51,694 nt of DNA, taken from IMG/VR virus record IMGVR_UViG_3300030376_002336, positions 1-51,694 of that record; one strand, written 5' to 3'. A program made the translations under genes and the position numbers. Under the pieces are notes generated by a model. The model ran no database searches. It was given only the letters and a program-made list of their open reading frames with translations, and was not told where the DNA came from. The stretch's first letter is position 1. Every line of letters starts with the position of its first letter. Source of the stretch: a virus (taxonomy: Duplodnaviria; Caudoviricetes). This document shows positions 1 through 51,694 of this stretch, one piece after another.

Positions 1-3000
1 GAAGCAGCAGCAGATGTAGAAGATACTCTTAATAATATGGGTATAGAAGTGGAATTACCACAGACTAATAATACTCCAATGCTTAATGCTTTACTAGAAA
101 GAAAATATAGAAAGTATGCTGCAAGTGCTGCTATAATGGGTGACCCAGTATTATCTTTTGAGAAATGGAGAAATACAGAAGAAGGAATTAATTTGCAAAA
201 TGGTTTTAATGCAGTTAAAAAAATCTGGGCTGCTGGTGGAATGACCAATAATCCTGATACTCAACAACCAGAGTATGTAAGCCCTTTAAGTAGGGAGCAA
301 ATACTATCAGAAAATGGATTTCAAGAATGGTCACAAAGCAGAGAAACAATAGAAAGTCCTGATGTAAAAAGAGTATTAGATCAATTAAATCTTACGCTAG
401 CTGATATATTTATACAGCCAGATGTAGTAGGTGATGAAGGATCTGCAGTATTAGGTGACCAAAAGAAAAAAGTAAAATTAAAAGGATCAACAGCTGCTAT
501 TATTCAAATTGATACAGTAGATATAAATACAGGAGAAGCAGTTACATATTATAAGGTTACTGACTTGCAAGGAAATAATCTTTCTAAACAGTTGTTAGAC
601 TTTTTAACAGCAAAAAACAAGACTCACAGTTTTGGATCTTTTAGAACATTAGGTGCTGCTAAAGATGCATTTAAGATTATAGAAGCTACTGCACCAGACA
701 CAACAGTTTTTCCTTTTGATAATGTAGAAGGTTTGAGTCAAGGGATGATAGTTTATAAAGACAATGAACCATATATCATTTTAAGCAATCCTGGTGAGGC
801 AGCAAGAGGATATTTAAAAGTTATACCAGCTGCATTAAATACACCAAACAAAAAAGAATTAAAGAGCAATACTATTACTTTAAAAGAAGGAGAGTTTAAA
901 GGTGTATATGCTCCACAAAAATTAGACACTACAAGATTAAATGCTAATGTAGCAAGGATAGATGTTAATGAACCTATAACACCATATAAAGCAGTTAATG
1001 AAGGAGAAGGTTCTGGATCAAATGGAACTGCAGAAGCAAGATACAATGTTATTATATCAGCATTATCAAAAGATGATTTAGCAAACTTAGAGTACGTTAT
1101 CACTGTACCTGAGAATAGTGGAGAAGTAAGTACTAGACAATTTAGTATAGTAGGTAAAGATGGTCAAACATATTTGTCACCTAACCCACTTATAAGACTT
1201 GCAACAAGTAAGTATCAAATAGGGATAAGAGTTAAAGATCCAGCTGCACAAGAAAAAATATATCAAGCATTAACAAAAGCTAATCTAGCTCCTAACACTA
1301 ATCCAGGAGGTTTCTTTGCATTCTTAAATAATCAGTATGTTGTAATGGAAGACATGCAGGGTAACCCTGTAGATCCACGTAGTATGACTGAAGAGCAAAT
1401 GCTTAATACTATATATCCAGGCGGTGTACAAAACATGTCTAATAAAGAGCTGTTAGATCTAGTTCATAATAACTTTGCATTAAATGCTTTAATAGTAAAT
1501 GAATTAGACTCATTAAACTTGACAGTTGAAAGTGAGCCATATGTATTTGAAAAAGGCTTTGGTAAGTTTGGACTTAAAGTACAAGGTGGTAGAGTAGCTT
1601 ATCCAAAAGGAGCACAAGCAGCAAGAAGTGTAAATGATTTAATGTTTACTGACTCAGATTTAAATGGTGGTGTTCTTATATATGATATGAAGTATGATGA
1701 GAACACTGGAAAAAGAACTGTTCAAACTGTAACTAATTTAGAAGGTGATGCACAAGCTAGATTAAGAGCAGATGTAAAACAGGGCCTTTTAGAGCAAGGG
1801 TTATACAATCAAATGTTAAATGGTACTGATAGATATTATGTAATTATCAAACTACCTAATGGTACTTATGCACCTGTAAATGTTAAATCTAATAGACTTA
1901 CTACTCTTGAGATAAGTGAATTATATAATGAGGTTATTGAGAGAGCTCAATTAACTTTAAAAGATAATGCTAAAGGAGAAGATGTTTTATTTAATGATAA
2001 ATGGAATGAAGACTTAGGCAATAGATTATTTATAAGTAATAAGCCAGGTTATATTATTGACTTAGAGGTAAGCCCTTATGGTAAACCACAGTTTGTACTA
2101 AAAAAGAAATTAGGCAAAGATAATATTGAAGAGATTGCTAGAGTTGAGTTAGATAAAGATAAAGTAAGAGATAAAGAGTTATCTTCAGATCAAAAGATTC
2201 AGTCTCTTATTAATGACTTTAATAATGATGAAGCGGTAAAAGGAGAAGCAGTAAAAATTTCAGCAGGTAATTTAAGACAATCATTTGCAGATGGTGCACC
2301 AGTAGAAGAAATACTAGCAAAAACCAGCACTTCTGTTTTACCTAATGTTATTGAACAACAAAAATTAAGAGTAACTGCTGATGCAGTAGCTATAGAAGCT
2401 TCAAAACAAATTGCATTTATTAATCCTACAAAACCAGAAGATGTTAAACCTCAACCAAATCCTACTAATGAAGAATTAGGAGATGCAGGTTTAGAAGGGT
2501 TAACAGATGAGGAGTTTGAAGAATTAGTATCTGAAGATTTTGAAAGTGTTAATAATGAATTTTTACAACCTGTAGTTAACAAACTACTAAGAGGTATAGA
2601 TTTAAATACTAGAGAGCAAGCTGTGTTTAAAGCTTTAGAGTCTAAGATAGAGCTATTAGTTTTAAATCAAGGAGGTAGAAATAGTTTGGCAGAAGCAACA
2701 GAAGTTGTAGAGAGCCCTTTACAAAGAGCTAAAGATGAATTAGATCTATATAAAGAAGAATTACTTGAGGGTGTTCCTTTTAAACAACATGCTAAAACAT
2801 TAAAAGCAAGTAAAGAATATCAAAGACTGCTTAAGAATTACAAAGACTTAGCAAGGATTGCTAATAAAATATTAGAATCAAGTAGAACTCCACAAGAAGT
2901 TGAAGACATTGATACATTTATTGATTGGGCAAGAGTTAATTTACCTGATTATATTTCTGTTGAAAGTTTGCAAAACCTACAAGATAACTTCCAAAGTACT

Positions 3001-6000
3001 AACCAGCGTGTGGGTGCCTTTATGTTAAACATGAGTCACATAGGTAATGGTGTTGAGGGAACTATTTTTACAAGTGCCGTTTCACCATTTAAATATCATG
3101 AGGCTTTCCATGGTGTATTTAGAATGTTACTTACTCAAGAAGAGATAGTAAAATACCGTTCTATAGCTAGAAAAGAAGTTAGAGCTAAGCTTAGAGCAGA
3201 AGGTAAAAGCTTTAAAAAAGAATTAGAAATATTCAGAAACTCAGCTAGTACATATACTAATATGACTGAGAAGGAATTACAAAATGAATATTATGAAGAG
3301 TACCTTGCAGATGAGTTTGAGAAGTTTAAGATGGACCCAAAGAGCACTAATGTGGATGCTGAAGTTAAGTCTTTGTTCACTAGATTTATTGAATGGATTA
3401 AATCTTTATTCAATAATGTTGCACAAGACGAGCTTCAAATCTTATTTAAGAACATTGATTCTGGGAAATACCAACAAGCACAAGTAGCTAAAAATGAATT
3501 TACTGCAGCTCTGAATGCTGGCCCTATAGTAGCTAATGCATTATTACCATATAGTAGTGAGCAGGTTCAGGATGCAACAGGTAGAGTAAGAACTGGAGTA
3601 CTATATCTAAATAGTGATATAGCAAACCCTATGATAGGAAGCATGGCTGCAATGTTCTTATCTAGAGTAAGACAAATAGAAGGTGAGTATAATCCTAAAG
3701 AAGTATTAGATACATTAATTGAAGACTTCCAAAACTTATACAATCCTAGAAATCCTTCTAATGAATCATTAACAGAAGAACAACTTGCAGAGTTAGAGTC
3801 TATCCAGGATGCATTTAACATTTATCCAGAAGAAATAACTAAAGCTGTTGTAGCACAATTAAATACTATTGGAACACAAGTTGATGAAGAGCAATTTACA
3901 ATGGATGAGTTTGAAGATTCTACAGGAATTAGAACAACTACTCAATATGGTAAAGATGCATCATTGTCTGGTGGTTTTAATTCTTTATCTACTTTCCTAA
4001 GAGGCTATATAGCTACAACTAACCTTGAAGCTAATGAGCAAGGTGAGGTTATGGATTTATATGGTAACGTTAGTTTAGAGAGTTCTGATCAAAGATTTGA
4101 CAATCAACCATTAATTATTCCGGTAGATGCACAGTATGCATATAACGCATTACTTAAGGCTGTTAAAAATACAGAAGATACTAAACAAATTTTAGAACAG
4201 ATGTATGCATTTGGAGTTGATAACCCACATGCAGGTGCAGTAGTTAATAGAATTTTAAACCAAGCAGGTATAAGTCCTGAGACACTATTAAGTAATGATC
4301 CATTACCAACTAACTTTGTAATGAAAGATCCTGGCTTCTTGCAAGCAGTAATAAAAGGATTCCAAAACTATAGAGTTAACTACATATTTAATGAAAGAGA
4401 TGAATATGGTAATGTAAGAGTATATTCAGCTGCACAAAGAGATGATATAAATGCTCAATTAGATAAATGGAATCAAGCCTTTATAAGCAAGAAGAAAAGA
4501 TTTAATGACCCTAAAGTAGAAAATCAAATAGAAGTATTACTAGACGGGTTAAGTGATTTGCTATCATCTAAAAAGGCAATAACAAATAAACTGCTTTCTA
4601 AAAAAGCTAATCAATATTCTATAGACTTATTTAACTTGACAGGTATTAAGTTAAGTCCTTTATATATACGCTTTAGTGCACTACAAGACAAACCAACATC
4701 TGTACTAAATGTATCTCAAGCTAGTTTAGTTAGAAATAATGCTGATCAAAAAGGTATAAATAGAGTTGGTATTAATCCTACTGCACAAACAGGACAAGAA
4801 TATGTAACTACAGTAGAACAATTAAGACTTGCTATCCAAACAGGTGCAAATATTTTTAGCACACGTAAAGATGGTATGGCTTCTAGATTATATGAATTGT
4901 CACAAAACAATGCTGCATTTGATGAAACTGTAGGTGCTTCAGTATTTAAAAATCCTAATGGTGATTTAGTATACTCACATCAATTACCTACCTATCACTT
5001 AAAACAAATAAAAGCTTTAAATAACTCTAGCACTTTTGATCAGTTAATACTTGATGATCCTTATTTAGCTAATAACTATTTATTAAATAGCTCAGCTTTT
5101 AGAAACATGTCTAATAAAAACATGATAATTGTTTCTAGAGTAGCCGGAAGTAAATTAGGTAGAGAGTTAACATCAGAAGAAGATTTAAATGATTCTATAA
5201 GTGGTATTAAGTCTACCTCAACTTATGGTGACTTTACTGCTCAAGAGTTTGCAATCAATATGATAAACAACTACACTGCTTTCTTTAATACTAAAAGCAA
5301 TAAAGTAGACCGAGTAGTAGATGCAGAAGGTAATGAAGTAGCTATTGCTCCAGTTCTTATTAGAGTAATGGAAGCTTCTAATACTGGAGACACAATAGGA
5401 TTGCCAGTAATTAAAGCTGTTGAGACAGTAAATGGTGAAGTAGTTATAACTGATACAGCAGTTAATATAGTTGTTAATGAAATTGCAACAGAGTTTGACA
5501 GAATAGTAAGAGAAGGATTAGAACTAAATAATGAATCAAGAAATATAATTGCAGGTTATAATCAGAATGAAAATGGTAGAGCATTTAAATTCCAAAATAA
5601 TAGACTTTCTATTTCTGAAAAACTTAAACAAGATCTAATTGCAGTTGCCTTAGAACAAACTAAAGCTGGTGAGACTATAACTTTAGAGAAGGCATTATCT
5701 TTAATAGATAGCAATATGGCTGCTGTCAGAAAAGAAATAAGAGATAATATTGAAATACAATTTGATGAATTCCAGGATACATTAGATGAGTTAAATGTAA
5801 GAGATCAATTATCTAAATATATTAAAGATGGTTTAACAATAGGACAAGGTGTAGCAAGAAAAGAAACTCTTAAGTCTGCACAACTTCTTAATTTAAATTA
5901 TTTAGAAGAACATAATCTTAAACAAATTTTTATTAATGACTATATAAATACAATATCTATAAACCAAGTGTTATTAGGTGATGAAGCAATGTCATTAAAA

Positions 6001-9000
6001 GATCCTATTGATCAAGTTAAAAGAGCTAAGATGCAGAATGCAGCATATTACAATGCATACAGTTCTTTTTCTGCACCACTACTAGGTGTTCAACACAATG
6101 TAGAAGATATATCTTTAATCACTTTTGAAGAGCCACAGGGTGTTTCAAGCATTACTGGTAATCCAATAGATAAAGCGGATGCTCAGATGTATATAACTAC
6201 TAAGGCATTTAGATACATGAGGTTTGGTTTTGGTAAACTAACTGAAGCGGAAGCTAAACTTATTGATGCTATTGAAAGTGGTCAAACATTACCTGAAGGA
6301 ACATATGATTTAGCTAATAAAATATTTGGTAATGAGCAAGCACCTGTAGGACTAGCAGCTGAACAGAAGTTATTAAACTCTAAAAAATTAGTTTATGGAG
6401 ATGGTAAGACATTCTTAAAGATGTCTGCTTTTGTATTAACTCCTCAGTATACTTCAAACTGGGATGCTGTAAGTGAGCAATGGGTTGCTAAACCTAATAG
6501 AGTAGAACTCCATAACTTAAGAGTTAAACTAGAAGCAATAGAAAAAGGCAAAGAAACTATTAGTATAGCTGCTCCTGTTTCTGCATCTAAAATGATGAAA
6601 CAGAGAATTAATAATATTGAACAGCTTAGAAATACTAATGAGTTTACAGAGGGAGTTACAACGCTAGATGCTAGGAACATGGGTCTACAAGTTCTAAACC
6701 CTAGTAACAAACTAGACATTATAGATCCTACACAGATTAAAGAAATCTTAACAGCAGAACAAGATGATAGTGTATTTGTAGAAGGATTGGGTATGACTGT
6801 TGGTGAAATAAGAAAAGCATATAATGATGCTGTGTCAAAAAGAGTAGAGTTAAAGTTTAAAAATAGAAGAAACTTAATATTTACATTAGGTACAGCACTA
6901 GATGAATTAGCAGTTTCAAGTGAGTCAGGAATGATTACTCCTAATCTTGAGGCATTCTTACAATATGCTATGAATAGTCTTAAGGCTTCACAGTCTAATG
7001 AAACACTTATAGATTTCTTTTCATCAACAAACGGAATACAAAACTATGATCTTAATAATCCAATAACAGTAAAGAAGTTTGAGCAATTATTCTTAAGCTA
7101 CTTTAGTAAAGGTACTTTATCAGAAAGAGCACCAGGGGTTTCATTAACATTAGTATCTGACTTTGGCAATAATGTATATAGAAGAGTATATGAAGTAGAT
7201 GCAAATGGAGTACCAGTAAGATCTGAGGTAATTAGAGAAAAAGTATTTGAAAAGAATCCTGAACCTTTAGTTGAACTTGACTCATTAGTTGAAGGAGAAC
7301 ATAATGGTGTGGTTGTATTAGATAGATTAAGAACCGGGTTGATGGAATATACAAACCCTAAAGACAAGAGTACTGCTACAGGTCAGAGATACACAGAATT
7401 CATGATGCCTGCTCATCACAAAGAAGTAATGGAGCTGGTAGAAGATGGCAGCATGTCAATGCCAGAAGCAATAAGTAAATTATTTGGAGTAAGAATTCCT
7501 ACTCAAGATAATCATTCTGCTATAGCTATGAAACTAGTAGACTTTATGCCTGCTTACTATGGATCTAGTGCAATGTTTTCACAAGAACTAGTAGAAGTAT
7601 CAGGAGCAGATTTTGATATTGATAAAGTGTTTGCATTAATAAAAGAGTTTTATGTTAAAGACGGAAAGTTTGTAGAGTATAAACAAGAAGGTAACTATGA
7701 TGAATACTTTAGATACATAAATGAAAGAGTAGTAAAATCAGGAAGTGTTTATGCTGAAGCAGCAAACCTATGGGATGAAGAATCATCTGCATCTAAAACT
7801 CCTATAACTCTTTCTGAAGAGAATAGTGTTACTGATGCTGGGTTAAGTGAAAGAGGTTTACAAGCCTTAAAAGTATTAGGTCTTCCTATAACTAAAGCAC
7901 AGTACAAATTATATGTAGCTAAACACGGTGTTCCTTATGATGCACCACTAAATAATAAACTTGTAGATCTTAAGTATGCTTTAGTATCTAACAAAGGTGT
8001 AACTGAAAACAAAGATGGAGTTCCTATTTCTTATGAGTCAGCAAATACTGATGTATTAAATGATTTATTAGTTGAGTTAGCAAATGAATCACAGTACTTT
8101 AAAGATAAGTTAGAAGAAAATGTATCAGACATTAATAACTTAAACGGTAAGATACTTGCTTTTAAAGCTAATAAAGGTGCATCTATTGGTGCGTTTGTAT
8201 TGCCTAACTTGTATTTAAGTTTATTAACTGAATATAAAGCTACTTTAAAATCTCCAGTTAGAGTTAATGGTAAGTCTTATGCCAAATACGGAGTTACAGT
8301 AATGGAGAGTGGTGATAGAAAACAAGATATTAATTCTTCTTTAGTTACTGCAGCAACAGATAATGCTAAAGACCGTTTAATAGGTAAGTTTGGTTTAAAT
8401 AGAAATGCAGCTTCTGTATTAATGAATATGATTGCTTTAGGTATTCCATTAAAGACGGGAGTATTACTTCTTAATAATCCAAAAATACAAGAGCTTTATG
8501 ATACAGCCATAAACAAAAATGATCAGTTTGATGCAGGTATTATTTCTTTAGTTGATGCTGAGATAGGAGATTCCAAAGATAAAGCTATGGTAACAGATAA
8601 AATGTTATTAGGAGCTATAAATGGTGAAACAGTAAATGAAACAGCTATCTTAAAGTTGTTTAAGAAAGTCTTAGGGATTACTCAATTTACAGGTAACATG
8701 GGAGCTGTAACTGGACTTACTAAAGGATTAGGTAAAAGTATTGTAGATGTAAATACAAAAGCAGAAAGCATTGAGAAACTAATGAGCAAAGAGGCTCCAA
8801 TAGATTTATATAATATTTATAAAGGAAAAACATTCCAGAATACATATTTAAAAATCTTCTATCAAATTAAAGAAAAACTTCTACCTAGCACTTTCTTAAC
8901 AGCTAGTCCAGAGTTTAATAAAATATCCAATGAAGTATTTGCACAACTTGGTGTAGATAGTATAGAGTTTACAGAAGAAGTAAAAGACAAAGTTAGATTA

Positions 9001-10398: not shown

Positions 10399-10405
10399 TA
10401 TAGAT

Positions 10406-34688: not shown

Positions 34689-34705
34689 ATATAAAATTAT
34701 GTTTG

Positions 34706-38631: not shown

Positions 38632-38649
38632 ATATTTTTTATTAGAGCC

Positions 38650-38682
38650 AAAAAAAGCCTAAATCAATAGGCTTTTCTTTTT
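38650..38682. terminator. Bidirectional-looking intrinsic terminator
   Basis: AAAAGCCTA-aatcaa-TAGGCTTTT with A and T runs on the two sides. Confidence 0.65.
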
Positions 38683-38744
38683 AAATCAGCAAGTAAACAT
38701 TTAATATTAAATGGATGTCTCTTACACACCCTTTTAGATTAGAC

Positions 38745-39164: not shown

Positions 39165-39174
39165 AATTTTTATT

Positions 39175-39756: not shown

Positions 39757-39757
39757 A

Positions 39758-40750: not shown

Positions 40751-40871
40751 TCAGTTTATCTAATTTTTGTTGTAGCTTCTGTATCTGTTTTTTCATATCA
40801 CGTGTCTGTGTTTTTGTTTTATAAAACAGTATAGTGTCTATCAACATTTGTCTATCATCTTTTTTACTCAT
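40734..40871 (-). CDS. 45-aa coiled-coil peptide (not in ORF track)
   Basis: MSKKDDRQMLIDTILFYKTKTQTRDMKKQIQKLQQKLDKLNDKKQ; fills the gap and overlaps both neighbours. Confidence 0.6.
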   Translation of the reverse strand: MSKKDDRQMLIDTILFYKTKTQTRDMKKQIQKLQQKLDKLNDKKQ

Positions 40872-42048
40872 TGTTAATGTTATTAGTTAGGTCTTCTCTT
40901 AAGTAGAGGTCCTCTATATTCACATTAAAATAAGCTTGATCATTATCTGTACCTACGCTAGAAGAGAGAATGTTTTTATAGAGTCTTTCTCTTGTGTAAT
41001 CTATAGCAAACTTAGTTAATTTATCAACAGAAATCAAGTTTTTTATATAATTATTATAAGCATAGATGGAGTTATCTGAACCACCATTTTGAAATATAGA
41101 CATCTTGCTTCTTAGAGCTTTAACATTAACTGTATTCCAATTATTGGTATCCTTCAGCCAGTCATAGTACCAGTAATAAATGATACTAACAACATCATAA
41201 GATTTATTTACATTACAATTTGATAATAGTTCTAGAGCTAATGATCTATTATCTCTATCACTACTACTAATCATAGCAATCATATTATCTAACTCACTAT
41301 TATCAATAACAGCTAAGTCTTCATCAATGATATTAGCAACATCAACATCAAATACTAAGTCTGATGAAGTATTAATTATTTTATGATATGTATCAATCTT
41401 ATCTTGTCCTGTAATTACAACTTGTCTACCTCCATCAGTATCCCTATCAGCGTTATCATCAAGAAATTTTTGAATTAATCTAACTGTGTCAGCTTTAGGA
41501 TCAGAGTTATCATAATGATAATAAGCTCTCTCAATCTGTATTCTAGACTCTTGAGGTATACCGTCTAACATATCTCTACAACGGCCTAAGCTATCTGCTG
41601 TTAACATGTCAGCCTTTTTAAGATAGGCAAGGAATTTATAAAACTGTGAGTATGTTAATGAAGCATACCATTGGGTCTCCATTAATTTTCTCATACCATT
41701 TATAGAAATAATTTCAACATCAGCTCTATCTGCTATTCTGGTAACTTTACAGTTAAATTTATCCTTTAATAAATCTACCTTTTGTCTTGGTAAATCTAGA
41801 TTTGGCCATCTATACAACTTTTTATCTTGTATATTTATTTCTTCTGGCATAGGAGGTAAAACAGAACGTATAAGTTTACTGTCTATTTCCCAACCTGAAG
41901 TACGGCCTATATATAAACCATATTCTTGTAGTTGAAATGCATTAGAAAGTAGTTTGTTAGTGGGTTTATTACCACCAACAATACTTTCTGCATTAGTTAC
42001 AGTAGTTTGGTCTTCTATTTTTATATTTAATTTGAAATACTTAATCAT
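40864..42048 (-). CDS. Hypothetical protein, paralog of 42053-43087 (BRCT-like segment plus shared helical motif)
   Basis: KKLYRWPNLDLPRQKV...KVTRIADRADVEII; IDNSELDNMIAMISSSDRDNRSLALELLSN. Confidence 0.7.
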   Translation of the reverse strand: MIKYFKLNIKIEDQTTVTNAESIVGGNKPTNKLLSNAFQLQEYGLYIGRTSGWEIDSKLIRSVLPPMPEEINIQDKKLYRWPNLDLPRQKVDLLKDKFNCKVTRIADRADVEIISINGMRKLMETQWYASLTYSQFYKFLAYLKKADMLTADSLGRCRDMLDGIPQESRIQIERAYYHYDNSDPKADTVRLIQKFLDDNADRDTDGGRQVVITGQDKIDTYHKIINTSSDLVFDVDVANIIDEDLAVIDNSELDNMIAMISSSDRDNRSLALELLSNCNVNKSYDVVSIIYYWYYDWLKDTNNWNTVNVKALRSKMSIFQNGGSDNSIYAYNNYIKNLISVDKLTKFAIDYTRERLYKNILSSSVGTDNDQAYFNVNIEDLYLREDLTNNINNE

Positions 42049-42052
42049 AATT

Positions 42053-43087
42053 TTATTTTAAATATTGTTGATACTCTTTTTTAACAGCTACTCTAAAGGT
42101 ATAAAGATCTCTGTTCTGTATACTGATTTCTGATCTAACTATAGGCTCTAAATATCTAAAGGTTGTCTTACATAATAAATCACGTTCTTCTAACCATTGT
42201 ATCATGTCTTGTGCAGACTTCCTATAAAATGTAGTAAAGTTAGATTCTTTAAGCCAGTACTGTAGATCCTTATCTCTATTGTCAGCATACTCAAGATTAC
42301 TACAGTCTTGTGCTAGCTGCCATAATAAATGATAGTTCTTAGTATAATCTATATTAGGAACAATCTTTATAGCTAAAGCTTTATCATCATTGTAAGAATT
42401 CAATTGAGTTTTAAGATCAGACAGAAGCTGTTCATCTAAAAGTAACTTTGTTGCTGATGCATGTAATACTGTCTCAGTATCAATAACACTTACATCTGTT
42501 GTATCAATAATATGAGCAAGATTTACTGCCATACCTGTTAGCATCCATACATCTAATAGGTTGTCATTCATATCTACATCATAATATCTTACACGTTCTG
42601 TGATCTGAGGTGTTACTATACACTCTACGCCTGAATCACCTATAGCTTTAAGCACACCTATAGAATCACTATCTCCAAGAGTTGTCTCATAGTTCCATAA
42701 TTTATTCATCATTATGGTAGATGGGATCTTCTCAGCATTATTTAATTTATATGTGCTTATATCATCATGACCAATAATTAAATCTGCTAATTCATAGTCA
42801 TTAGTAACAGTTATACCATGCTCCTTAAGAGCTGCTTTCATTCTATCTTGTGATACATTACACTTTGGTAATATGAAAGCTTTCTTTTTGGTTCTAAAAG
42901 TTTGTCCGTCTTCTGTAGGGACAGTTAATATACTGTGTATCTTGTTATATGTGGTTTCATCTTGACTGATTAATACTTTATCAATACCCATAGAGCTAGA
43001 AACCAACCCGTATAAAGGGTCAGTTTCTAGTCCAAAGTATTTCAGTGCATCATTATCAAAGTCTTGATATACTGATTTTGTTGCCAT
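42053..43087 (-). CDS. Hypothetical protein, paralog of 40864-42048
   Basis: KKAFILPKCNVSQDRM...ITVTNDYELADLII; LDEQLLSDLKTQLNSYNDDKALAIKIVPN. Confidence 0.7.
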   Translation of the reverse strand: MATKSVYQDFDNDALKYFGLETDPLYGLVSSSMGIDKVLISQDETTYNKIHSILTVPTEDGQTFRTKKKAFILPKCNVSQDRMKAALKEHGITVTNDYELADLIIGHDDISTYKLNNAEKIPSTIMMNKLWNYETTLGDSDSIGVLKAIGDSGVECIVTPQITERVRYYDVDMNDNLLDVWMLTGMAVNLAHIIDTTDVSVIDTETVLHASATKLLLDEQLLSDLKTQLNSYNDDKALAIKIVPNIDYTKNYHLLWQLAQDCSNLEYADNRDKDLQYWLKESNFTTFYRKSAQDMIQWLEERDLLCKTTFRYLEPIVRSEISIQNRDLYTFRVAVKKEYQQYLK

Positions 43088-43088
43088 T

Positions 43089-44357
43089 TTATTTCATTGT
43101 CATTTTAATGATGTCTGGATTCATCATCATCTTATTAAACTTCTTTTTATTACCGTTAAAGATTGTTCTTACAATTAAATACTTCAGATCATTAGTAAAA
43201 TAATCTTTTGTACATAGTGCAATCAATCTATCTGTTTGCTTTTGTCCAATAGTATTCTCTTTAGAATATACTACAGAGAAGTTACCAAGTCTAGTTGCTA
43301 ACGTTGCAGCAATATCTGCACGGTAATTATCATCTTTACCAATACAAGATCTAAGCTCACCAAGAATATACGCCTCATTATCATGAGTCAATAAGTCTTT
43401 AGGTGTTACCAGCTTATCAAGCTTGTTATTAATAAAGGTTGTAAACATAGAAGCAAATGCATCACCAACACTACCCTCTCCAATCATTTGGATCATAGAT
43501 AGGTTGTCTTCAAAGTTATCAAAGCTAGATATAGCATTGAAGAACGTTGTTATAGATCTTGCATTTGTTTCTTGAGTTACTAACTCTGGATGGAGCAACA
43601 GGAAGTTAATACATCTAGTGTCAATTCCTGCACCCTCAGCCCATTGTGCCCATACATTAACATCAAACTTCAAGTTAGCGGTTACATATCTAGTCTTCTG
43701 TGCTGAATCAACACTGTTAACCATATAATCTCCGTTGTCTGGGTTTGCTGTCAAAATTATGTGCCAGTCTTTTGGTAATGTCCATGAGATGTAAGATTGT
43801 CTATCAATCAATTCCATAACTGCTTGAATGAATCTTGTATCTGCACGGTTCCAGTCATCTAATAATAGTATACCACCTGACTTTGCATCAGCAATCCATT
43901 CTGGTGCACAGTAAGACATTCTGTTCTTACCAGTCATTTTGTAACCATTCTTTAAGTACTCTTGTACTGCTAATTCATCCACCCACATACCAACTTTTTT
44001 AGTAATGCTTGTGTTAAGATTAGCAAGACTTGCACCAGCTGCTCTTTGAGTTGCTGTAACCATACTCACATCTTTATTAGGTACGTTTACTTTCTTTTCC
44101 TTATACATTTGAAACTGACGTACAGGGAAACCAACTAAGTCACCTAACTCTTCTATCTGAGCTAGATTTAGTTTAACAAATTTCAGATTATTATCTTGTG
44201 CAAGCTCTACAATTGTAGAAGTCTTACCAATACCTGATTCACCTACAACTTCTACTGATACAGAATTTTTACCTTCTTCTTGCAGATACCTATTGTTAGT
44301 GATTATGTGATTTACAAATCCTTTTAGTTCCGTTACATTTAAATTTACTTGTGCCAT
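43089..44357 (-). CDS. MoxR-like AAA+ ATPase
   Basis: Walker A GESGIGKT, GDLVGFP, Walker B LLLDDWNRA, sensor I TANP, DSAQKTR. Confidence 0.9.
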   Translation of the reverse strand: MAQVNLNVTELKGFVNHIITNNRYLQEEGKNSVSVEVVGESGIGKTSTIVELAQDNNLKFVKLNLAQIEELGDLVGFPVRQFQMYKEKKVNVPNKDVSMVTATQRAAGASLANLNTSITKKVGMWVDELAVQEYLKNGYKMTGKNRMSYCAPEWIADAKSGGILLLDDWNRADTRFIQAVMELIDRQSYISWTLPKDWHIILTANPDNGDYMVNSVDSAQKTRYVTANLKFDVNVWAQWAEGAGIDTRCINFLLLHPELVTQETNARSITTFFNAISSFDNFEDNLSMIQMIGEGSVGDAFASMFTTFINNKLDKLVTPKDLLTHDNEAYILGELRSCIGKDDNYRADIAATLATRLGNFSVVYSKENTIGQKQTDRLIALCTKDYFTNDLKYLIVRTIFNGNKKKFNKMMMNPDIIKMTMK

Positions 44358-44366
44358 TTTCTTTTA

Positions 44367-45530
44367 TTAATTTAATTTGATTACTTGTCCTGGTAATTCA
44401 TCATTCATATCAGAGATACTACTAAGTACCCATAAGGTATTATTAGGACAGTTCTCTGGAGAATATGCTTCACCATCTGTTAAATATATTAAGGCAGTAT
44501 ATTGCCCTTTCTTTTCATTGAAATGATCTACTACTGGTTGGAAGCTTGTTCCACCACGACCATGTATTTCCCAATCCACTTTAGGATTAAACTCTTTCAC
44601 GCTGTTCAAGCGGGTATCACATTGTGCTACTGTAATCTTATGACCTGTCTTATGCATATGTGTAAGCTCACTAAAGAATTCTGTTAGCTCTTCATTATTT
44701 ACAGATCCACTTGTGTCAACACCAACAAGAATATGATTCTTAAATTTAATCTTGAGTCCTGGATTAGCTGAGTACCTTTTATTGTACTTACGTCTTAGCT
44801 TCTTAGTATATACTACACTAGAGTTACCAACAAATCTTCTTAGATAACCTTTCCAATCAAACTTTGGTGGTTCAATATGCATTAGTCTACGTATAAGATC
44901 TGCTAACTCTCCTGGTATATTACCCTGCTTCTTAACTGTTTGCTCAGCAGATTCTTTTAACTGATGCTCTATTTGTTTTTGCATTAGTTTTTTATCTGCT
45001 TCAGGTAAATCATCAAACTCTTCCCATGTACCATGACAAAAAGGTGAGTTACCATCCATCTGATTCATAAGACTATCTAATGAAGGAGATGTGCCATCCT
45101 GTTTAGCCTGTTGCAAAAGATCATAATATTCTTTTGTACCTGCTTTTTTAGGAAGATTTAATTCAGGAAAACTACTCAATAACAATCCACCTTCAGGCAA
45201 ATTGCTTTCCAGTATGTACTGGTTTATCTCTAAGTCTGCAGCTATATTAAATAACTTTTTATCTGCATAGAGATCTCTCACAATAAGATGTCCAAAAGCA
45301 ATATGTAATAACTCATGCTTTATTAATCCAAATCTATGAGGCTCACTAAGTTCATTAAAGAACTCAGGATTTATAGTCAATTGTATACCAATGTTGTGTT
45401 TACTTACACCTGCAGTAGGCAGTTGCATGCTATACTTCTTATTGATACCAATTAAAAAGAGCCCGTAAAAGGGCTCAGTAAAAATTAAACTTTTGGTTGT
45501 TCTTGCAACCTGTTCTTGTACATTAATCAT
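44367..45530 (-). CDS. Metallopeptidase-VWA fusion (DUF2201-like)
   Basis: HELLH and NIAADLEINQ; MIDAS motif DTSGS, GRGGTSF, LTDG. Confidence 0.9.
   Translation of the reverse strand: MINVQEQVARTTKSLIFTEPFYGLFLIGINKKYSMQLPTAGVSKHNIGIQLTINPEFFNELSEPHRFGLIKHELLHIAFGHLIVRDLYADKKLFNIAADLEINQYILESNLPEGGLLLSSFPELNLPKKAGTKEYYDLLQQAKQDGTSPSLDSLMNQMDGNSPFCHGTWEEFDDLPEADKKLMQKQIEHQLKESAEQTVKKQGNIPGELADLIRRLMHIEPPKFDWKGYLRRFVGNSSVVYTKKLRRKYNKRYSANPGLKIKFKNHILVGVDTSGSVNNEELTEFFSELTHMHKTGHKITVAQCDTRLNSVKEFNPKVDWEIHGRGGTSFQPVVDHFNEKKGQYTALIYLTDGEAYSPENCPNNTLWVLSSISDMNDELPGQVIKLN
45454..45476 (-). terminator. Intragenic terminator-like hairpin near the 5' end of the VWA gene
   Basis: GAGCCC-ttttac-GGGCTC-TTTTT on the minus strand. 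Confidence 0.45.
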
Positions 45531-45810
45531 CCATTAATTTATCTAAGATTTGTTTATATATATCATTAGCTTGTTCTAATGATAGGAATGTATATAGGGT
45601 TTTGCCAGTCTTACTAACAAGATTCATTTGGACAGCTTCAGCAAAATACTTTCTATCTTTAAACAATAACGCCTTTAGCATCAGTTCATTTAAGATATGT
45701 TTATCTTGATATTGGGTATTATATAGCTCTAGTGCCAAATCTTTATCTTCTTCAGATCCACTAAACATTTCTTTTATTCTAAAAAATTCTTCAATTGATA
45801 TTATCTTCAT
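45523..45810 (-). CDS. Small helical protein sharing a motif with the 40864 and 42053 proteins
   Basis: ISIEEFFRIKEMFSGSEEDKDLALELYN. Confidence 0.7.
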   Translation of the reverse strand: MKIISIEEFFRIKEMFSGSEEDKDLALELYNTQYQDKHILNELMLKALLFKDRKYFAEAVQMNLVSKTGKTLYTFLSLEQANDIYKQILDKLMDD

Positions 45811-46183
45811 CTAATATTAGTTCAATCCATACACCGGGGTTCTTTTTATCATAACTATATTCTTTGAAAGCAGGTATTATAAATTCTGCATTGTCATCTT
45901 CTATCCATCCATATTTGACCATATCATCTTGTACAGTTTGTGCAGGATTGATATAATCAAACTTATGTCTGGTGCCTCTAACAAATTCAAAACTTATTCT
46001 AACAGGAAGCTCTAGATCTTTTATTGCATCTTTAAAATCTTCTGTTAGTTCTGTGTATCTATCTTTAGTAGCTTTTCTGTAATTCATTACAGCCTTGCTA
46101 GCAATAAAATATTTACCAGTCCACCTTCTTCCATTCTTACTACTAGGAACATTACCGGGTATAAACCATCTTCTTTTAACCAT
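45791..46183 (-). CDS. RusA-like Holliday junction resolvase
   Basis: IPGNVPSSKN, DYINPAQTVQDDM...WIEDDN, NPGVWIEL. Confidence 0.75.
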   Translation of the reverse strand: MVKRRWFIPGNVPSSKNGRRWTGKYFIASKAVMNYRKATKDRYTELTEDFKDAIKDLELPVRISFEFVRGTRHKFDYINPAQTVQDDMVKYGWIEDDNAEFIIPAFKEYSYDKKNPGVWIELILDEDNIN

Positions 46184-46185
46184 AA

Positions 46186-47163
46186 CTATTTATTTAAGGT
46201 TTGTTTTAATAATGGTTGTATTGCTTTATGAAACTCTTTAAATCCAACTTGCTTCATAGCATCAGATACATCTTTAGCTATAGGGCAAATTATTCCATCC
46301 AGTTTATAAAGGTTATTATATTTATTTACTGCAGTCTTACCTGCTTCATCATTATCAAAAAGTGTTATTACTTTTTTATACTTTCTCTTTAAGTGTTCTA
46401 TAACATGGGGTTTAATCATAGTATTCTCACTGTCTGGTGCTAATACTTCTATGTTATAACCCATACCTTTTAAACACATTGCATCTTTAAGAGATGAGCA
46501 TATAATTAAATAAGGTTGGTCAAACTTCAATTGATCAAAGCCCTGTAAATAAGGCTTAACTTTATGAAACTTATGCTTCTTGCTATGAGGTTGGTATATT
46601 TTATATACTTCATTATTCTTATCAAAGTATCCATACATATGCTTACTACCAATTCTCAATTTTTTAACTTCATTTGACTCTTCTTTGATTAGGTTATAAT
46701 AATCTATAGGTTTTACATTATATGACTCTAGCATTGTTTTACCAATCCTAAAGGATAACCAATAATCTCTGTCTTCCACGGTCCATTGTCTTTCTTTAAT
46801 GAAATCAACTTCCCATTTAGACTGAGGCTCAAACTTCTGTTCAATATATTCTGATGAACTCACGTACTTGTTGTAATCCCTTACCATTCTCTGCATTGCA
46901 GTAGGAAAATCTAAGCTAAATAATTCTTTAACTAAATCAACCTTATTGCCGCTCTTACCAGTTGAGAAATCCTTAAACTTATATTGCATAACTGTCTTAT
47001 CAACATATATGCAAAAGCTTGGTGTTCTCTCAGTACTATTAAAGATAGAAACAATCTTTAAGTCTTGACCTGTAAGTCTTTCTGGTAGATCTAAATAGTA
47101 TTGAAAAACCCATGTACTTGGTATATCAGATCCTTCTAGTACAAAGTTTTTAGTATTAAACAT
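46186..47163 (-). CDS. dnaG: DnaG-type primase (crAss-like)
   Basis: ERTPSF...FKDFSTG N-terminal domain; TOPRIM SSLKD...LFDNDEAG...KDVSD. Confidence 0.85.
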   Translation of the reverse strand: MFNTKNFVLEGSDIPSTWVFQYYLDLPERLTGQDLKIVSIFNSTERTPSFCIYVDKTVMQYKFKDFSTGKSGNKVDLVKELFSLDFPTAMQRMVRDYNKYVSSSEYIEQKFEPQSKWEVDFIKERQWTVEDRDYWLSFRIGKTMLESYNVKPIDYYNLIKEESNEVKKLRIGSKHMYGYFDKNNEVYKIYQPHSKKHKFHKVKPYLQGFDQLKFDQPYLIICSSLKDAMCLKGMGYNIEVLAPDSENTMIKPHVIEHLKRKYKKVITLFDNDEAGKTAVNKYNNLYKLDGIICPIAKDVSDAMKQVGFKEFHKAIQPLLKQTLNK

Positions 47164-47176
47164 ATAACAAAAATAA

Positions 47177-47219
47177 TAAAAAGATATGGGCCCAGCATTA
47201 CACTGAGCCCACTCTTTTT
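47177..47219 (-). terminator. Intrinsic-terminator-like hairpin between the SSB-like gene and primase
   Basis: TGGGCTCAG-7nt-CTGGGCCCA (one G-U on the minus strand) followed by TATCTTTTT. Confidence 0.7.
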
Positions 47220-47229
47220 AAATTACTAA

Positions 47230-47904
47230 CTACAAATCAAAGTCATCACCTGTTGATCCTGCTGGCTCAAAGCTAGTTGTTGTAGCAACTTCCTTTTTAA
47301 CCATAGGTCTAAAGTGATTAGTGTCATTCTTGTCAAAGGTAAGTAAGTTAGAATTTTCTGTTTCTAAAGCTTCTAACGGTACACCGTTTCTACTTCTCTT
47401 AGGTAAGAACAAATCATTATTTACATAACCTTCTTTGTTTTCCCACTCACGTGCACCTAAGCATGCATTAATATAACCAGTACCTGAACATACTTTTGCA
47501 GCCTTAACCATAAAGTCTTCAATAGTATTTGCTTCAATAGCATCAAGTTCATCTCTTTTATTTACAACCTCTGATAAAAATACCATAGCTTTCAATACTT
47601 CTGTATCTCTACTAATCTCATTACCATTAGCTAAAGTTGCATCCTTAAATGGATACGGAGAGAATCTAACTCTGCCTACTTGACCTTCATAACGTGGTCC
47701 ATTAGGGTTGTTCATATCTTTTAAGAAGCCGTTGAACTCTCCTGTTACTGGTTCACCTTCTATATGTAGTGTAATATTATATGCATCTGCATCATATGGT
47801 GTTTGATCAAAGGTAATAGAGTTGATTTTAACTTTGTGATTACCTGTTCCAATTACTGGTTTAATTCCACCTGATCCGGCAGACATGTCTTTAGTACTTA
47901 ACAT
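47230..47904 (-). CDS. Putative single-stranded DNA-binding protein
   Basis: Beta-rich N-terminus, acidic aromatic tail GDDFDL, position downstream of the AAA_24 ATPase. Confidence 0.6.
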   Translation of the reverse strand: MLSTKDMSAGSGGIKPVIGTGNHKVKINSITFDQTPYDADAYNITLHIEGEPVTGEFNGFLKDMNNPNGPRYEGQVGRVRFSPYPFKDATLANGNEISRDTEVLKAMVFLSEVVNKRDELDAIEANTIEDFMVKAAKVCSGTGYINACLGAREWENKEGYVNNDLFLPKRSRNGVPLEALETENSNLLTFDKNDTNHFRPMVKKEVATTTSFEPAGSTGDDFDL

Positions 47905-47932
47905 AATTTACTTTTTTTATTAATTATTAATT

Positions 47933-48616
47933 TTACTTATTGTATTCTTCAATACAATTCTTTACTAATTGTAAGTCATTTGGAATAAATGATTCCTCAA
48001 ACATACCCATTGGTGATTTACATGTGTTCTCTCCATTGTTTTGAGTTTCAAAACCATATTCAAGTTCACCATCATCATTTTTATTTACTCTTCCAAAGAG
48101 CACAATAGAGAATAGACCTTCTAAAGTTAGAGTATTGTCAATCATTTTACCAATAGTCTTTGCTTTAACTTTTCTATTTCCATTTATATCAGTTGAATCT
48201 TCTGAGTGAGTCAAAAAGATTATAGTTAGATCATCTCTCAAATCTTTAGGAAGCTTAGCAACCATTGCTAAGTTAGCTGCAATTTGAGTAAACTTATCAT
48301 AACCTTTCTCATTAGCTCTATCAAAGTATTCAAAAGAACTCATATACTGCCAGTCATCTACAACAATTGTTTTGATTTCTGTCATTTTATCATTAACATG
48401 CTTCATTGCCTTAATAATACCAGGAGCTGATGCTGCTGATGTTAGATTACCTTTAGGGTTTTCTTTACTAATCTGAGTATACTTACTCTTATAGCCCTTA
48501 AAAGGTAAAGGTTTATTTGCAATGTTAATAATGAAAGTCTCTTTGGGGTCTAATGTTCTAATTGAGGTAGACTTTCCTGTACCTGAATCAGCAATTACTA
48601 ATACGCTCTGTGCCAT
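47933..48616 (-). CDS. AAA_24 / Sak4-like P-loop ATPase
   Basis: ADSGTGKST, IVVDDWQY, FLTH, KTIGKM, TCKSPMGMF. Confidence 0.85.
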   Translation of the reverse strand: MAQSVLVIADSGTGKSTSIRTLDPKETFIINIANKPLPFKGYKSKYTQISKENPKGNLTSAASAPGIIKAMKHVNDKMTEIKTIVVDDWQYMSSFEYFDRANEKGYDKFTQIAANLAMVAKLPKDLRDDLTIIFLTHSEDSTDINGNRKVKAKTIGKMIDNTLTLEGLFSIVLFGRVNKNDDGELEYGFETQNNGENTCKSPMGMFEESFIPNDLQLVKNCIEEYNK

Positions 48617-48618
48617 GT

Positions 48619-49182
48619 TTAACTACTTAATTTATTCATAATATTTCTAATTGATTTGAGTGTTTCATTTAATTCATGTAACGCTTCTGCTACCGGGTTC
48701 TCAATCTTGTCATCAGGATTAGGTAAACTTGGATTAGCAAAGTCTATTACTTTTTGCTCATTATCTATAATGTTTAATCCACCTCCTCTGCTAGTGACAT
48801 CATTAATTACTTTAAGTTCACTAGCTGGTATCAAGTGTCTTTGAAACCCTGAGTTACTAGTTATTAGCTCATACTCATCTTTCCAATGAGGGTTGTATTT
48901 ATGTAAATACAAAGTTCTCTTTGGATCTTCTGAGTCATAATCTATACTAACAAACTCTGTGTATATATCTTTTTCTTTCTCCATTTCACTTGGAAAGAAA
49001 CTGACATGTAGGTCATCCTTACCAGATGGTCTATAAGCCATCTTAGGAATATATAATGCATTAATGATACCTTCTGTTTGAAAGTAATCTTCATGCTCCT
49101 CTCTAAGTTTTGCAACTTTTTTTTTACGTTCTGCTGGTGTTAATCCCATAATTTCTCTATTTATATTTTTTGTATTTATCAT
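48619..49182 (-). CDS. Hypothetical protein
   Basis: 187-aa ORF in the replication operon. Confidence 0.7.
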   Translation of the reverse strand: MINTKNINREIMGLTPAERKKKVAKLREEHEDYFQTEGIINALYIPKMAYRPSGKDDLHVSFFPSEMEKEKDIYTEFVSIDYDSEDPKRTLYLHKYNPHWKDEYELITSNSGFQRHLIPASELKVINDVTSRGGGLNIIDNEQKVIDFANPSLPNPDDKIENPVAEALHELNETLKSIRNIMNKLSS

Positions 49183-50135
49183 CTCCTTTCTTGTTGACCT
49201 GGGGTAGGCATTTCTTCTATCTGCATTTGCTCAAACTTTGCTCTAAAGAATGACATTCTTGCATCACCATTTCTAGCTTTTAAGAAATGAAGAACCAATG
49301 TCCTATCATTTTCTATTATATATCTATCAGGTCCATAGAATCTAATCTTTTGCTTAGCTGGTCTGTTGATACCTACTAACATATCTGCATGCTGTAGCAT
49401 TGCATCTGAGCCAAATATGTCTGACTCAAGTATATAGTTACCATACTTACCATCTATAGCCCTATCCGGGTTATCTATATTTCTATTAAGTTGTGATAAA
49501 GCAATAAACAAACATGGATAATCTCTCTTACACTGTGTAAAGAACTCACCCAACTCAAATAACATATCTAATGTGCTATTCTGATAAGGTGCTCTCTTAA
49601 CTAACATAGTGTGGTCAAGTGTTATCATTGTATTTACTCCTTTATGTATATTCATATAAGCATCTATCTGTTCACGCATTTGGTTTACAGTCATAGGTGT
49701 ACTAATTATATCTACTGGATGTTTAACTCTTTCTTTAGCATACTGATGACATGTGTTTAATGTATCTGTACTTAAAGTAGATCCGGCACTACATAATTCT
49801 TTATAGGTTTTACCGGTTATAGAACTAAACTCTCTAATAGCTGAGGTTCTACCTACCATCTCAAACTGAAACTCTAATACCCTGAACTTATCATTTGGAT
49901 TTAAAGCAAATGATTCTCTTATGATTTGGTCCTTAATAAGTGTTTTACCTGAACCAGGTCTACCACCAATTACAGTTAATGTATTCCACTCTATACCATC
50001 AGTAGCAGCGTCATTAAACTTAGGCCAAGGTGTATATATAGATTTCTCCTCTCCAGTTGATCTCTTAAACATATATTTAAGAGCTTCATTGAAAGCTGCA
50101 TATTGCCCAACCCATGCTTCTGATGTTTTTTTCAT
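49179..50135 (-). CDS. dnaB: DnaB-like replicative helicase (ATPase domain only)
   Basis: GGRPGSGKT, FEM, ITLDH, LSQLNR, KARNG. Confidence 0.9.
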   Translation of the reverse strand: MKKTSEAWVGQYAAFNEALKYMFKRSTGEEKSIYTPWPKFNDAATDGIEWNTLTVIGGRPGSGKTLIKDQIIRESFALNPNDKFRVLEFQFEMVGRTSAIREFSSITGKTYKELCSAGSTLSTDTLNTCHQYAKERVKHPVDIISTPMTVNQMREQIDAYMNIHKGVNTMITLDHTMLVKRAPYQNSTLDMLFELGEFFTQCKRDYPCLFIALSQLNRNIDNPDRAIDGKYGNYILESDIFGSDAMLQHADMLVGINRPAKQKIRFYGPDRYIIENDRTLVLHFLKARNGDARMSFFRAKFEQMQIEEMPTPGQQERR

Positions 50136-50722
50136 ACTACGTTTTCTTTAAAGTGTTCTTCTTCAGTTTCTATTCCATCAATAATCATATCACAATAGTC
50201 TGCCAGAGTTGAATGTTTAACTCTATGCTTATCTTGTTTAGATATAAAGTACTGACTGGTTTGCATATACAGGTATTCTTTATCTCTGTACTCATTAACA
50301 TACATTTTAGTTGCTTTGATTATCTCATCCCAGCTATAGTCATATGTTTCAAAGAACCATCTAAAGTTTTCACCTAATGCTTTGATATTATTTCTTGCAG
50401 GCTTACCGCTTGGTAATTTTTTAGCAGGAAATATTTCCCTATAGGTATGAATCTTATCATTGAAGTTCTTACCCATAAGTTGTATATCTGTTTTCTTTTT
50501 GGCTTTTATAAAATAATTATCAAGCCTAACACAAAAAGCTTTTGCTTCTGGTGTCATTGTATAAAGGCCATCTGCTTTTACAAGCATGCCTAATTTTACT
50601 AAATCTTCTTTATCTTCAGCTTTAATCTTGGGCAATGAAATTCCTTGCTTGATCCCAAATAGGATCAGACATTGGTTTGGAGTCATCTTTCTCTTCAAGA
50701 TTTGCTGGAACAGTTCCCACAT
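50132..50722 (-). CDS. Putative replication initiation protein (N-terminal winged-helix-like)
   Basis: 196 aa directly upstream of DnaB; YREIFP...EIIKATKMYV...YMQTSQYFI. Function is inferred from context. Confidence 0.5.
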   Translation of the reverse strand: MWELFQQILKRKMTPNQCLILFGIKQGISLPKIKAEDKEDLVKLGMLVKADGLYTMTPEAKAFCVRLDNYFIKAKKKTDIQLMGKNFNDKIHTYREIFPAKKLPSGKPARNNIKALGENFRWFFETYDYSWDEIIKATKMYVNEYRDKEYLYMQTSQYFISKQDKHRVKHSTLADYCDMIIDGIETEEEHFKENVV

Positions 50723-51140
50723 ATTCTATTAGTTTTGACATTAATTTATCAAATGTTTCTATAATCTCTCTGTCCTTTGCAAAGAAAGCATTTTCCATCA
50801 TTCTACATGAGTTAATCACTGTTGCGTGATTCTTTCCTATGGATCTAGCTATGCTTGTTTTAGTATGACCATCTTGCCATGCTATATAACACATAGTCTG
50901 TACCCACTTTACATAGTCTCTCTTTCTAAGTCTTGTACCTGAAATCTTTTCTATGTATTTGAACTCTGGGTTGTTCTCATGTATAACTGCTAAAGTAACT
51001 TTATGATACTCATCTAAAGGTATCCTGTATCTTTCTTCTGAGGGAGTAAAAACATAGAGTGTTACACCATGTCTTTTTCTAAAAGCTTTTTTAAATGCTT
51101 CTATCTCTTTTCTCTGTTTAACTTGTTGATTTTGAGACAT
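50622..51140 (-). CDS. Protein with DnaA C-terminal (domain IV) HTH
   Basis: RKRDYVKWVQTMCYIAWQ..TKTSIARSIGKNHATVINSCR matches the DnaA domain IV pattern IG..F.RDHTTV. Confidence 0.75.
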   Translation of the reverse strand: MSQNQQVKQRKEIEAFKKAFRKRHGVTLYVFTPSEERYRIPLDEYHKVTLAVIHENNPEFKYIEKISGTRLRKRDYVKWVQTMCYIAWQDGHTKTSIARSIGKNHATVINSCRMMENAFFAKDREIIETFDKLMSKLIEYVGTVPANLEEKDDSKPMSDPIWDQARNFIAQD

Positions 51141-51163
51141 TTATATTTTGGTTTTATAGGTTA

Positions 51164-51194
51164 TAAATATAAGTAAATTTACCAGTCTATGCAA
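51164..51194 (-). promoter_or_regulatory. Candidate Bacteroidota-type promoter
   Basis: TTG-N20-TATATTTA; shares AATTTAC before the -7 box with the 35617-35647 promoter. Confidence 0.4.
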
Positions 51195-51694
51195 TCTTTT
51201 CCTTGCTTTTTTAGCTCTTCATTTGCTTGGTTAAATACATCTTTACAATCCCATTCTCCACCTCTATATGCAGCTGATGCTGGGTGAGGACATTTAAGGA
51301 TTATACAGTCTGGTAACAAAGTTTGCCATTCTTCTGCTTTCTTTCCCATTAGAATAACAATAGTCTTTTTTTTATGTCTATTTATATTATCAAATAGGTA
51401 TTGAGTAAATGGTTTCCATATGTGATAATGTGAGCCTATCTTATTGATCTCTACAGTAAACGCTGTATTAAGTAACAGCACACCCTGGTTAGACCAACGT
51501 CTTAAGTCACATTCTTCTGGTGTATATATAACTCTACCTGTGTCAGTATAATCACCTATAGTTTGTTTTAGTATGTATTGCAGGGATTTTTCTGCTTTAC
51601 CTTTTCTACTACAACTAAATGCAATACCATCTGCAACTCCAAGCTGCGGGTATGGATCTTGTCCAACTATAATAACTTTAACATCATCATAGGG
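51179..51694 (-). CDS. ung: Family 1 uracil-DNA glycosylase (5'-truncated by window)
   Basis: Frame is open to the window end: VKVIIVGQDPY...GIAFS...WSNQGVLLLN...HPAS. Confidence 0.95.
   Translation of the reverse strand, partial: PYDDVKVIIVGQDPYPQLGVADGIAFSCSRKGKAEKSLQYILKQTIGDYTDTGRVIYTPEECDLRRWSNQGVLLLNTAFTVEINKIGSHYHIWKPFTQYLFDNINRHKKKTIVILMGKKAEEWQTLLPDCIILKCPHPASAAYRGGEWDCKDVFNQANEELKKQGKDCIDW

Follow-up and report, generated by a model that had tools for sequence, protein, structure and literature searches.

Why should a single three-letter word be missing from one strand of a phage genome? The question is raised by a stretch of 51,694 nucleotides from a virus of the Caudoviricetes (IMG/VR record IMGVR_UViG_3300030376_002336), which was analysed whole (positions 1..51694, hereafter the window) and is, judging by the genes of its relatives, about half of the genome of an uncultured crAss-like phage. 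A sequence-only reading of the window had proposed that TCG is absent from its + strand, in the +-coding and the −-coding halves alike. We find a real, clade-wide, strand-polar purge of this 3-bp word by selection, the agent of which is most likely host-encoded.

The dinucleotide CG occurs 255 times on the + strand of the window (observed/expected ratio, O/E, 0.18), close to the roughly 250 first estimated, and is never preceded by T: TCG is observed 0 times against a Markov expectation of 80.0, with a count of 0 both in positions 1-33800 and in positions 33801-51694. Its complement CGA, which is TCG read on the − strand, occurs 17 times (12 and 5 in the two halves) against an expectation of 81.1, and the 0:17 split has a binomial p of 1.5e-5. 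The sequence-only reading had put CGA at about 17 and named ten positions, all of them exact (3429, 5311, 11068, 17093, 17721, 17831, 25933, 33603, 34033 and 44557); the other seven are 17900, 24915, 25098, 32331, 34126, 34204 and 40620. No other trinucleotide in the window is as depleted as these two. The asymmetry thus stands, but that CGA too is scarce had been understated: at the rate of the other CG words, which number 238, 124.6 CGA would be expected, a deficit of about 7-fold. Among longer words, ACGT and CCGG are common (56 and 34) and TCGA, GCGC and CGCG are absent (0 each), as had been seen. As a separate observation, several palindromes are scarce in the window (GATATC 0, with 12.5 expected; GGTACC 0, with 7.8; GGATCC 1, with 8.4; GCGC 0, with 5.1), which is ordinary restriction-site avoidance and differs among lineages.

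Does the deficit belong to the genes or to the DNA strand? In 200 synonymous-codon shuffles of the window's genes, counted on the coding strand, + genes have 0 TCG against 55.8 (range 41-75) and 12 CGA against 95.5, and − genes have 5 TCG against 66.2 and 0 CGA against 95.4; both words lie far under the shuffled expectation, and unequally so on the + strand. All five sites that survive in − genes are TCG when read along the coding strand; the rule thus tracks the genome strand, as the sequence-only reading had argued, and the intergenic DNA of the clade agrees (65 kb, with 1 TCG and 51 CGA). Codon usage as the cause is ruled out by the shuffles together with the intergenic counts. Causes acting at the level of RNA fail because the polarity ignores genes; avoidance of mRNA-interferase sites, in particular, is excluded by a polarity that follows the genome strand in + genes, − genes and intergenic DNA.

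The same polarity is found in the relatives of the phage. The clade was taken as 20 genomes or large fragments with a polymerase identity of at least 63%, and its core as ten near-complete genomes oriented by their polymerase. The core genomes each contain 0-10 TCG (152-249 expected) and 28-72 CGA, or 53 TCG and 443 CGA in the pooled 1.10 Mb, and the + strand is the more depleted in all 20 clade genomes (ratio of log depletions, median 1.95, range 1.23-2.77). No flip of polarity at an origin or terminus appears in 10-kb bins along genomes of 101-120 kb. With codons controlled, no 3-mer but TCG/CGA is strongly strand-asymmetric (log2 −3.45, the next being −0.28); the depletion holds whatever the flanks, without preference for any flanking base within 6 bp, and the avoided word is exactly 3 bp. 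Loci gathered gene by gene agree: the polarity is the same at 69 of the 71 collected by the polymerase, at 71 of the 74 collected by ribonucleotide reductase (RNR; 3 tied) and at 75 of the 80 collected by a small HNH gene; these sets overlap and contain near-duplicates, and separate counts were kept for 8 distant polymerase loci and for 6 loci from other phages. Their agreement rules out an assembly artefact or chance. The purge has degrees: strict genomes and near-complete fragments keep 14-72 CGA each (CGA log depletion 1.4-3.0), and TCG, the minority orientation, survives 86 times in total, across 14 of 16 strict genomes. Four relaxed lineages, nested apart in the tree, have TCG/CGA counts of 106/148 (G005), 35/98 (G031), 135/212 (G041) and 62/165 (G048), and in outgroups at 45-48% polymerase identity the two words are nearly symmetric.

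A word may be lost by mutation or by selection, and the sequence-only reading had pointed to TCG as a deamination hotspot. Strand-biased deamination of the C in TCG, whether through methylation, UV dimers or a deaminase, and with or without selection on the resulting load, would be in keeping with the low general CG O/E of 0.18 in the window, with a + strand that is slightly C-poor, and with the presence of a uracil-DNA glycosylase and a photoproduct-lyase-like gene on the phage. The codon frames speak otherwise. In the + genes of ten genomes, T precedes an arginine CGN codon 11 times against 387 expected, although C-to-T would alter the protein there; serine TCG makes up 13 of 11373 TCN codons, with a TCG/TCA ratio of 0.0024 against 0.04-0.075 for the other NCG codons (Thr, Pro, Ala); and the synonymous frame NTC-G is filled 9 times in 8877. 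The − strand word is likewise 3- to 18-fold down in synonymous and non-synonymous frames alike. In 75 matched pairs of relatives (84-99.5% identity; shared sites were counted from both partners, and one sequence may recur across identity bins), C-to-T differences at synonymous TCG amount to 10 of 30 on the + strand and 31 of 71 on the − strand, against 967 of 2507 (0.39) and 857 of 2411 (0.36) at other CG, which is no excess. In frames in which C-to-T would be non-synonymous, it is changes in the flanks that remove TCG from the + strand (the 3-mer differs in 0.50-0.86 against 0.16-0.47); the alternative alleles at lost sites are mixed (TTG 14, TCA 12, CCG 12), and TC and TT are not depleted in the window. 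Since non-synonymous frames are equally depleted and the TCG cytosine is not hypermutable, deamination is largely refuted, very improbable as a cause even with a load term, and selection on the DNA word is supported: the deficit is selection at the DNA level, with loss by any route. CGA is lost about 2x as fast as control words, and simple genic selection at a log depletion of 2 predicts 2.3-fold; given this closeness, each site seems to carry a small cost.

What exacts that cost? Our preferred account, which we put forward tentatively and at somewhat less than even confidence, is selection by a host enzyme that reads the three letters TCG and is probably harsher on the strand left single by one-way replication. 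Such an enzyme, which might nick the DNA, modify a base or act as a block by binding, would read TCG on phage DNA at a small cost per site, a cost that would scale with how often the phage lineage meets the enzyme, and the log depletions of about 3.8 on the + strand and about 2 on the − strand can be read as population-scaled selection. The + strand would be the lagging-strand template; if the enzyme attacks exposed single strands, or if the harm of a nick depends on the template, sites there would then cost more, and in a simple model a twofold difference in cost between the strands would suffice for 0 against 17. In 18 of the 20 clade genomes, CG-free fourfold sites show a slight shortage of C on the + strand, and the usual skew rule makes such a strand the template for lagging-strand synthesis at a fork that moves in the + direction. 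Unrelated phages have converged on the same short word, and relaxation has recurred without gene change; together these observations tilt the balance to a host enzyme that is met at different frequencies. No gene families are confined to strict or to relaxed genomes. Of the 15 strict genomes, 11 have the three-gene cluster at 16299-18270, and none of the 4 relaxed ones does (two of these being fragments), yet the cluster occurs also in the undepleted, unrelated G024 and is thereby excluded as the determinant of the purge; it encodes a 417-aa protein with a signal-peptide-like start, a 95-aa protein and a thioredoxin-like protein. The same clade genomes also drop restriction-type palindromes, which we count for the host side.

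The sequence-only reading had suggested an orientation-dependent defence with a very short TCG/CGA core, and of this the 3-bp pressure read from DNA is upheld and the strict, type III mode is not. Both strands are depleted, the + strand about 2x as much in log terms, and so the pattern is not that of type III restriction; the strict form is rejected by the purging of CGA and by the spacing of the surviving TCG, which lie no farther from the nearest CGA than control words do (median 1223 bp against 1160 bp, p = 0.84). The same spacing bears on a second host-side possibility, namely a system that hemimethylates the asymmetric CGA/TCG, acts best at inverted pairs and weakly at single sites, and leaves the polarity as a frozen accident. 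The unequal depletion of both strands would fit a sum of single-site and pair terms; the spacing of the surviving TCG gives no pair-distance effect, the known MANTIS sites are 6 bp long and the word here is 3 bp without flanking preference, and for sites of types I and III the available text of one survey (PMC6286503) records no systematic strand-asymmetric avoidance. We regard this system as distinctly unlikely.

Several observations weigh against the host-enzyme account. The skew at fourfold sites is weak and entangled with gene class, and the genomes have it by common descent; a polarity inherited once does not distinguish a cause in replication from a historical accident. The loss of TCG on the + strand is about 2-fold above controls where about 3.9-fold is predicted (small counts). 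Around the terminase the polarity is weak and both words are scarce, with TCG below CGA at 48 of 80 loci, the reverse at 13 and a tie at 19. G042, which lacks the polymerase and stands outside the 20, has 51 TCG and 58 CGA; about half of this total (26 TCG, 24 CGA) lies in one block of an otherwise depleted genome (G042:30001-40000, L540), which may be foreign DNA or a chimera. G049, an unrelated phage with an RNR 88% identical, has 280 TCG and 257 CGA without genome-strand polarity, and its small word biases track the coding strand; RNR identity is a weak proxy for a common host. A search of the literature, without subscription journals, REBASE and supplements, found neither an enzyme with a TCG/CGA target nor a strand-polar TCG pattern. 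Among 301 Flavobacteriales genomes, markers of short-motif defences are rare (DUF4007 of Ssp/BREX-4 in 10, DarT in 10). Nor do conflicting metagenome-assembled genomes establish the host, one clade contig lying in a Flavobacteriales bin and one in a Pseudomonadales bin; a flavobacterial host is plausible, and the phage family suggests an aquatic habitat and a Bacteroidota host. A like depletion in host DNA is not borne out: in Flavobacteriales loci totalling about 100 kb, TCGN has an O/E of 0.57-0.99.

The cause might instead be borne by the phage itself: a phage-encoded, strand-specific nickase would hit host DNA at TCG/CGA, and the phage's own genome would avoid the word, more strongly so on whichever strand suffers more from a nick. 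A cause of this kind accounts for the constancy across the clade, for the drift of the motif in relatives and for the lack of a purge in G049. Its best candidate is a conserved HNH-fold protein of 89-134 aa, encoded in all ten core genomes and in eight further ones (G005, G009, G015, G028, G029, G031, G032 and G033). The predicted structure (predicted local distance difference test, pLDDT, 91) suggests an HNH fold with a zinc site: its top fold matches are all HNH domains, the best being the HNH endonuclease of phage GVE2 (Z 7.1, root-mean-square deviation 6.1, 80 residues aligned), and C31, C38, H46, H47, C65, C68 and H69 are invariant. A Z under 8 is a lead only, and the canonical His-Asn-His triad is missing, with an invariant Trp61 at what we take to be the position of the nuclease Asn. 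The gene is not adjacent to the terminase, it is kept in relaxed genomes, and near-identical HNH proteins occur in loci where TCG makes up 0 of 61 and 10 of 160 CG words (L420, L427). A cut at every infection should moreover clear both strands, and 14-72 CGA persist in each strict genome; the convergent loss of CCG in an unrelated phage group also speaks against self-avoidance, which we consider unlikely, if the more serious of the phage-side causes.

The other is a cost intrinsic to phage replication, in which TCG on the lagging template would cause mis-priming or pausing or be cut by the resolvase. The polarity is fixed relative to the replication layout, primases read template trinucleotides, and the resolvase slot differs between TCG-avoiders and YCGR-avoiders (degenerate letters in the standard code). 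Functional primase sites are nonetheless ruled out by the spacing of CGA, random or clumped with gaps to 21.7 kb, and by the poor conservation of CGA sites, which is below that of control words. phi14:2, furthermore, has the RusA-like family yet contains 316 TCG and 312 CGA, and relaxed lineages keep the same replisome. We judge such a cost improbable.

Other phages, related and unrelated, avoid CCG, YCGR or all CG rather than TCG. In the 120-kb G045 (L533-L538), YCGR is almost absent (TCGA 2, CCGG 0, TCGG 2, CCGA 1) and TCGT/ACGA are kept (172/161); G033 is low in WCGW. YCGR is the site of E. coli McrA. The distant crAss-like loci L503-L505 have nearly lost CCG (0-2), and an unrelated group that bears rIIA/rIIB and shares the RNR avoids CCG/CGG, with 0 and 0 in two separate branches; CCG and CGG are both zero in L566, L572, L573, L581 and L595, and nearly so in L613. 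The cultured crAss001, DAC15 and Fpv3 (W04, W05 and W02) have a CG O/E of 0.03, 0.02 and 0.07 and no polarity, crAss001 using CGN in 6 of 1335 Arg codons; L379-L388 and L370-L374 are likewise nearly CG-free on both strands. In phi14:2, ProJPt-Bp1 and cr50_1 the CG O/E is 0.46-0.58 (counts for phi14:2 and crAss001 cover the first 100 kb). A wider and still doubtful reading is that an undescribed family of anti-phage enzymes in Bacteroidota reads three-base YCG words (TCG here; CCG, YCGR or CG elsewhere) on replicating or single-stranded DNA; the polar word deficit of a phage genome would then show what the enzymes target and which way replication runs.

The features of the window are collected in Table 1. 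It encodes a polymerase, a primase, a DnaB helicase, an exonuclease, a RusA-like resolvase, Sak4, an RNR and two giant open reading frames (ORFs), the first of which (37-10398) has no Pfam or PHROG match and, by its size and position, may be a candidate virion RNA polymerase. No tRNA genes and no notable repeats were found in the window, and no methyltransferase in a scan of its 38 ORFs and of 63 of the 86 ORFs of a syntenic relative, G004 (polymerase 79% identical). Genes of crAss type lie outside the window. Its syntenic relatives, 101-120 kb in length, have them for capsid, ring, portal and terminase, and in G004 these include matches to Crass_capsid (E 6e-22) and CrAss_Ring_2 (E 7e-10) and a terminase that matches Crassvirales records at 21-26%. 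Atlas searches with two conserved proteins of no assigned function gave no usable match.

Table 1. Coordinates of features in the window and their bearing on the word deficit
Feature	Position	Strand	Remark
Mostly +-strand genes (two giant ORFs, tail-like, holin genes)	37..33789	+	Coding strand 0 TCG, 12 CGA
Giant ORFs	37-10398 and 10406-16195	+	In the +-strand gene block
RNR large and small subunit genes	18267..20881	−	84-92% identical copy in an unrelated phage group that does not avoid TCG
SET-domain gene (+) and dATP/dGTP diphosphohydrolase-like gene (−), accessory	33475..34343	both	4 of 17 CGA: 33603, 34033, 34126, 34204
Replication block	33954..51481	−	Coding strand 5 TCG, 0 CGA; same genome-strand polarity
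Spore-photoproduct-lyase-like gene	35648..36481	−	Patchy in clade; no link to purge
DNA polymerase	36509..38500	−	Used for finding and orienting relatives
RusA-like resolvase	45791..46183	−	No counterpart in YCGR/TCGR-avoiding outgroups, which carry a GIY-YIG-like ORF
DnaG-type primase	46186..47163	−	Weighed as trinucleotide reader; CGA spacing unfit
DnaB-like helicase	49179..50135	−	–
Uracil-DNA glycosylase, cut by window end	51179..51694	−	Small HNH gene about 3-4 kb beyond, in relatives

The surviving CGA sites are enriched in patchily distributed genes. A variable block beside the polymerase (33475-36481) holds a SET domain, a dATP/dGTP diphosphohydrolase domain, DUF932 and the spore-photoproduct-lyase-like gene; what G004 encodes in their place is GroEL, MazG and a nucleotide-modification-associated domain. 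In G004 (92806-93243, L164) and nine relatives, a conserved ORF of 134-157 aa lies on the opposite strand within the leftward replication/early block. The RNR large subunit is 84-92% identical (the small about 92% where checked) between the clade and an otherwise unrelated phage group, copies being present in L145, L146, L149-L151 and G049-G052, and the likely explanation of such similarity is recent exchange.

If the host-enzyme account holds, the deficit would be the clade-wide footprint of an enzyme for which no counterpart with a TCG target was found in the literature searched. The signal defines a concrete, assayable specificity, 3 bp with an approximately twofold strand preference, and suggests a route to hidden defences from phage sequence alone. 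crAss001 and DAC15, both CG-poor, infect Bacteroides hosts that can be cultured, which opens the question to bench experiments.

Among known systems, phage HNH nickases such as N.phiGamma and N.phiE2/GVE2 read a single strand at targets of 3-7 bp, several of which have a CG core (available text of PMC3592412). They are phage-encoded and strand-specific, and the small HNH protein of the clade folds most like that of GVE2; the N.phiGamma-type nickases described there adjoin terminase/cos and keep the Asn, unlike the clade protein, and none listed reads TCG. On the host side, SspABCD-SspE places a single-strand phosphorothioate at CCA and has a nicking effector (PMC9646914, in part), which likewise ties a defence to a three-base, one-strand motif, CCA and not TCG in the text seen, and whose marker family occurs in the 10 of 301 Flavobacteriales genomes given above. 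The accessible part of a BREX-4 study (PMC12914056) describes a T-C phosphorothioate dinucleotide in Parabacteroides and no TCG; nor was a TCG motif found in the accessible text of PMC11842806, or a TCG/CGA trinucleotide motif in that of two marine methylome papers, PMC9516812 and PMC8919816, the full motif lists of which stand in supplements. MANTIS, a BREX-related system with a graded orientation preference, is associated with single-strand depletion in about 40% of virulent phages (bioRxiv 10.64898/2026.09.23.753747, in part): its graded, strand-unequal pressure on phage genomes resembles that seen here, and it differs in acting at 6-bp hemimethylated sites in Pseudomonas, where we have a 3-bp word and found neither a distance effect nor a host system. 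Restriction-site avoidance in virulent phages mostly concerns palindromic type II sites, and strand-asymmetric avoidance is not systematic (PMC6286503, in part); in both cases a lytic phage has lost a DNA word through selection, and the window is also without GATATC, GGTACC and GCGC. A further precedent, and the one to which the sequence-only reading had appealed, is phage T7, in which the 36 sites of the type III enzyme EcoP15I are all in one orientation (PMC12707154 and the bioRxiv report above, both in part). The analogy is loose in that the word here is 3 bp, that the orientation which type III restriction would tolerate is also purged, that 14 of 16 strict genomes retain minority sites, and that clade members with a polymerase as little as 63% identical still show the pattern; what holds is an asymmetric word kept in one polarity throughout the genome, independently of genes.

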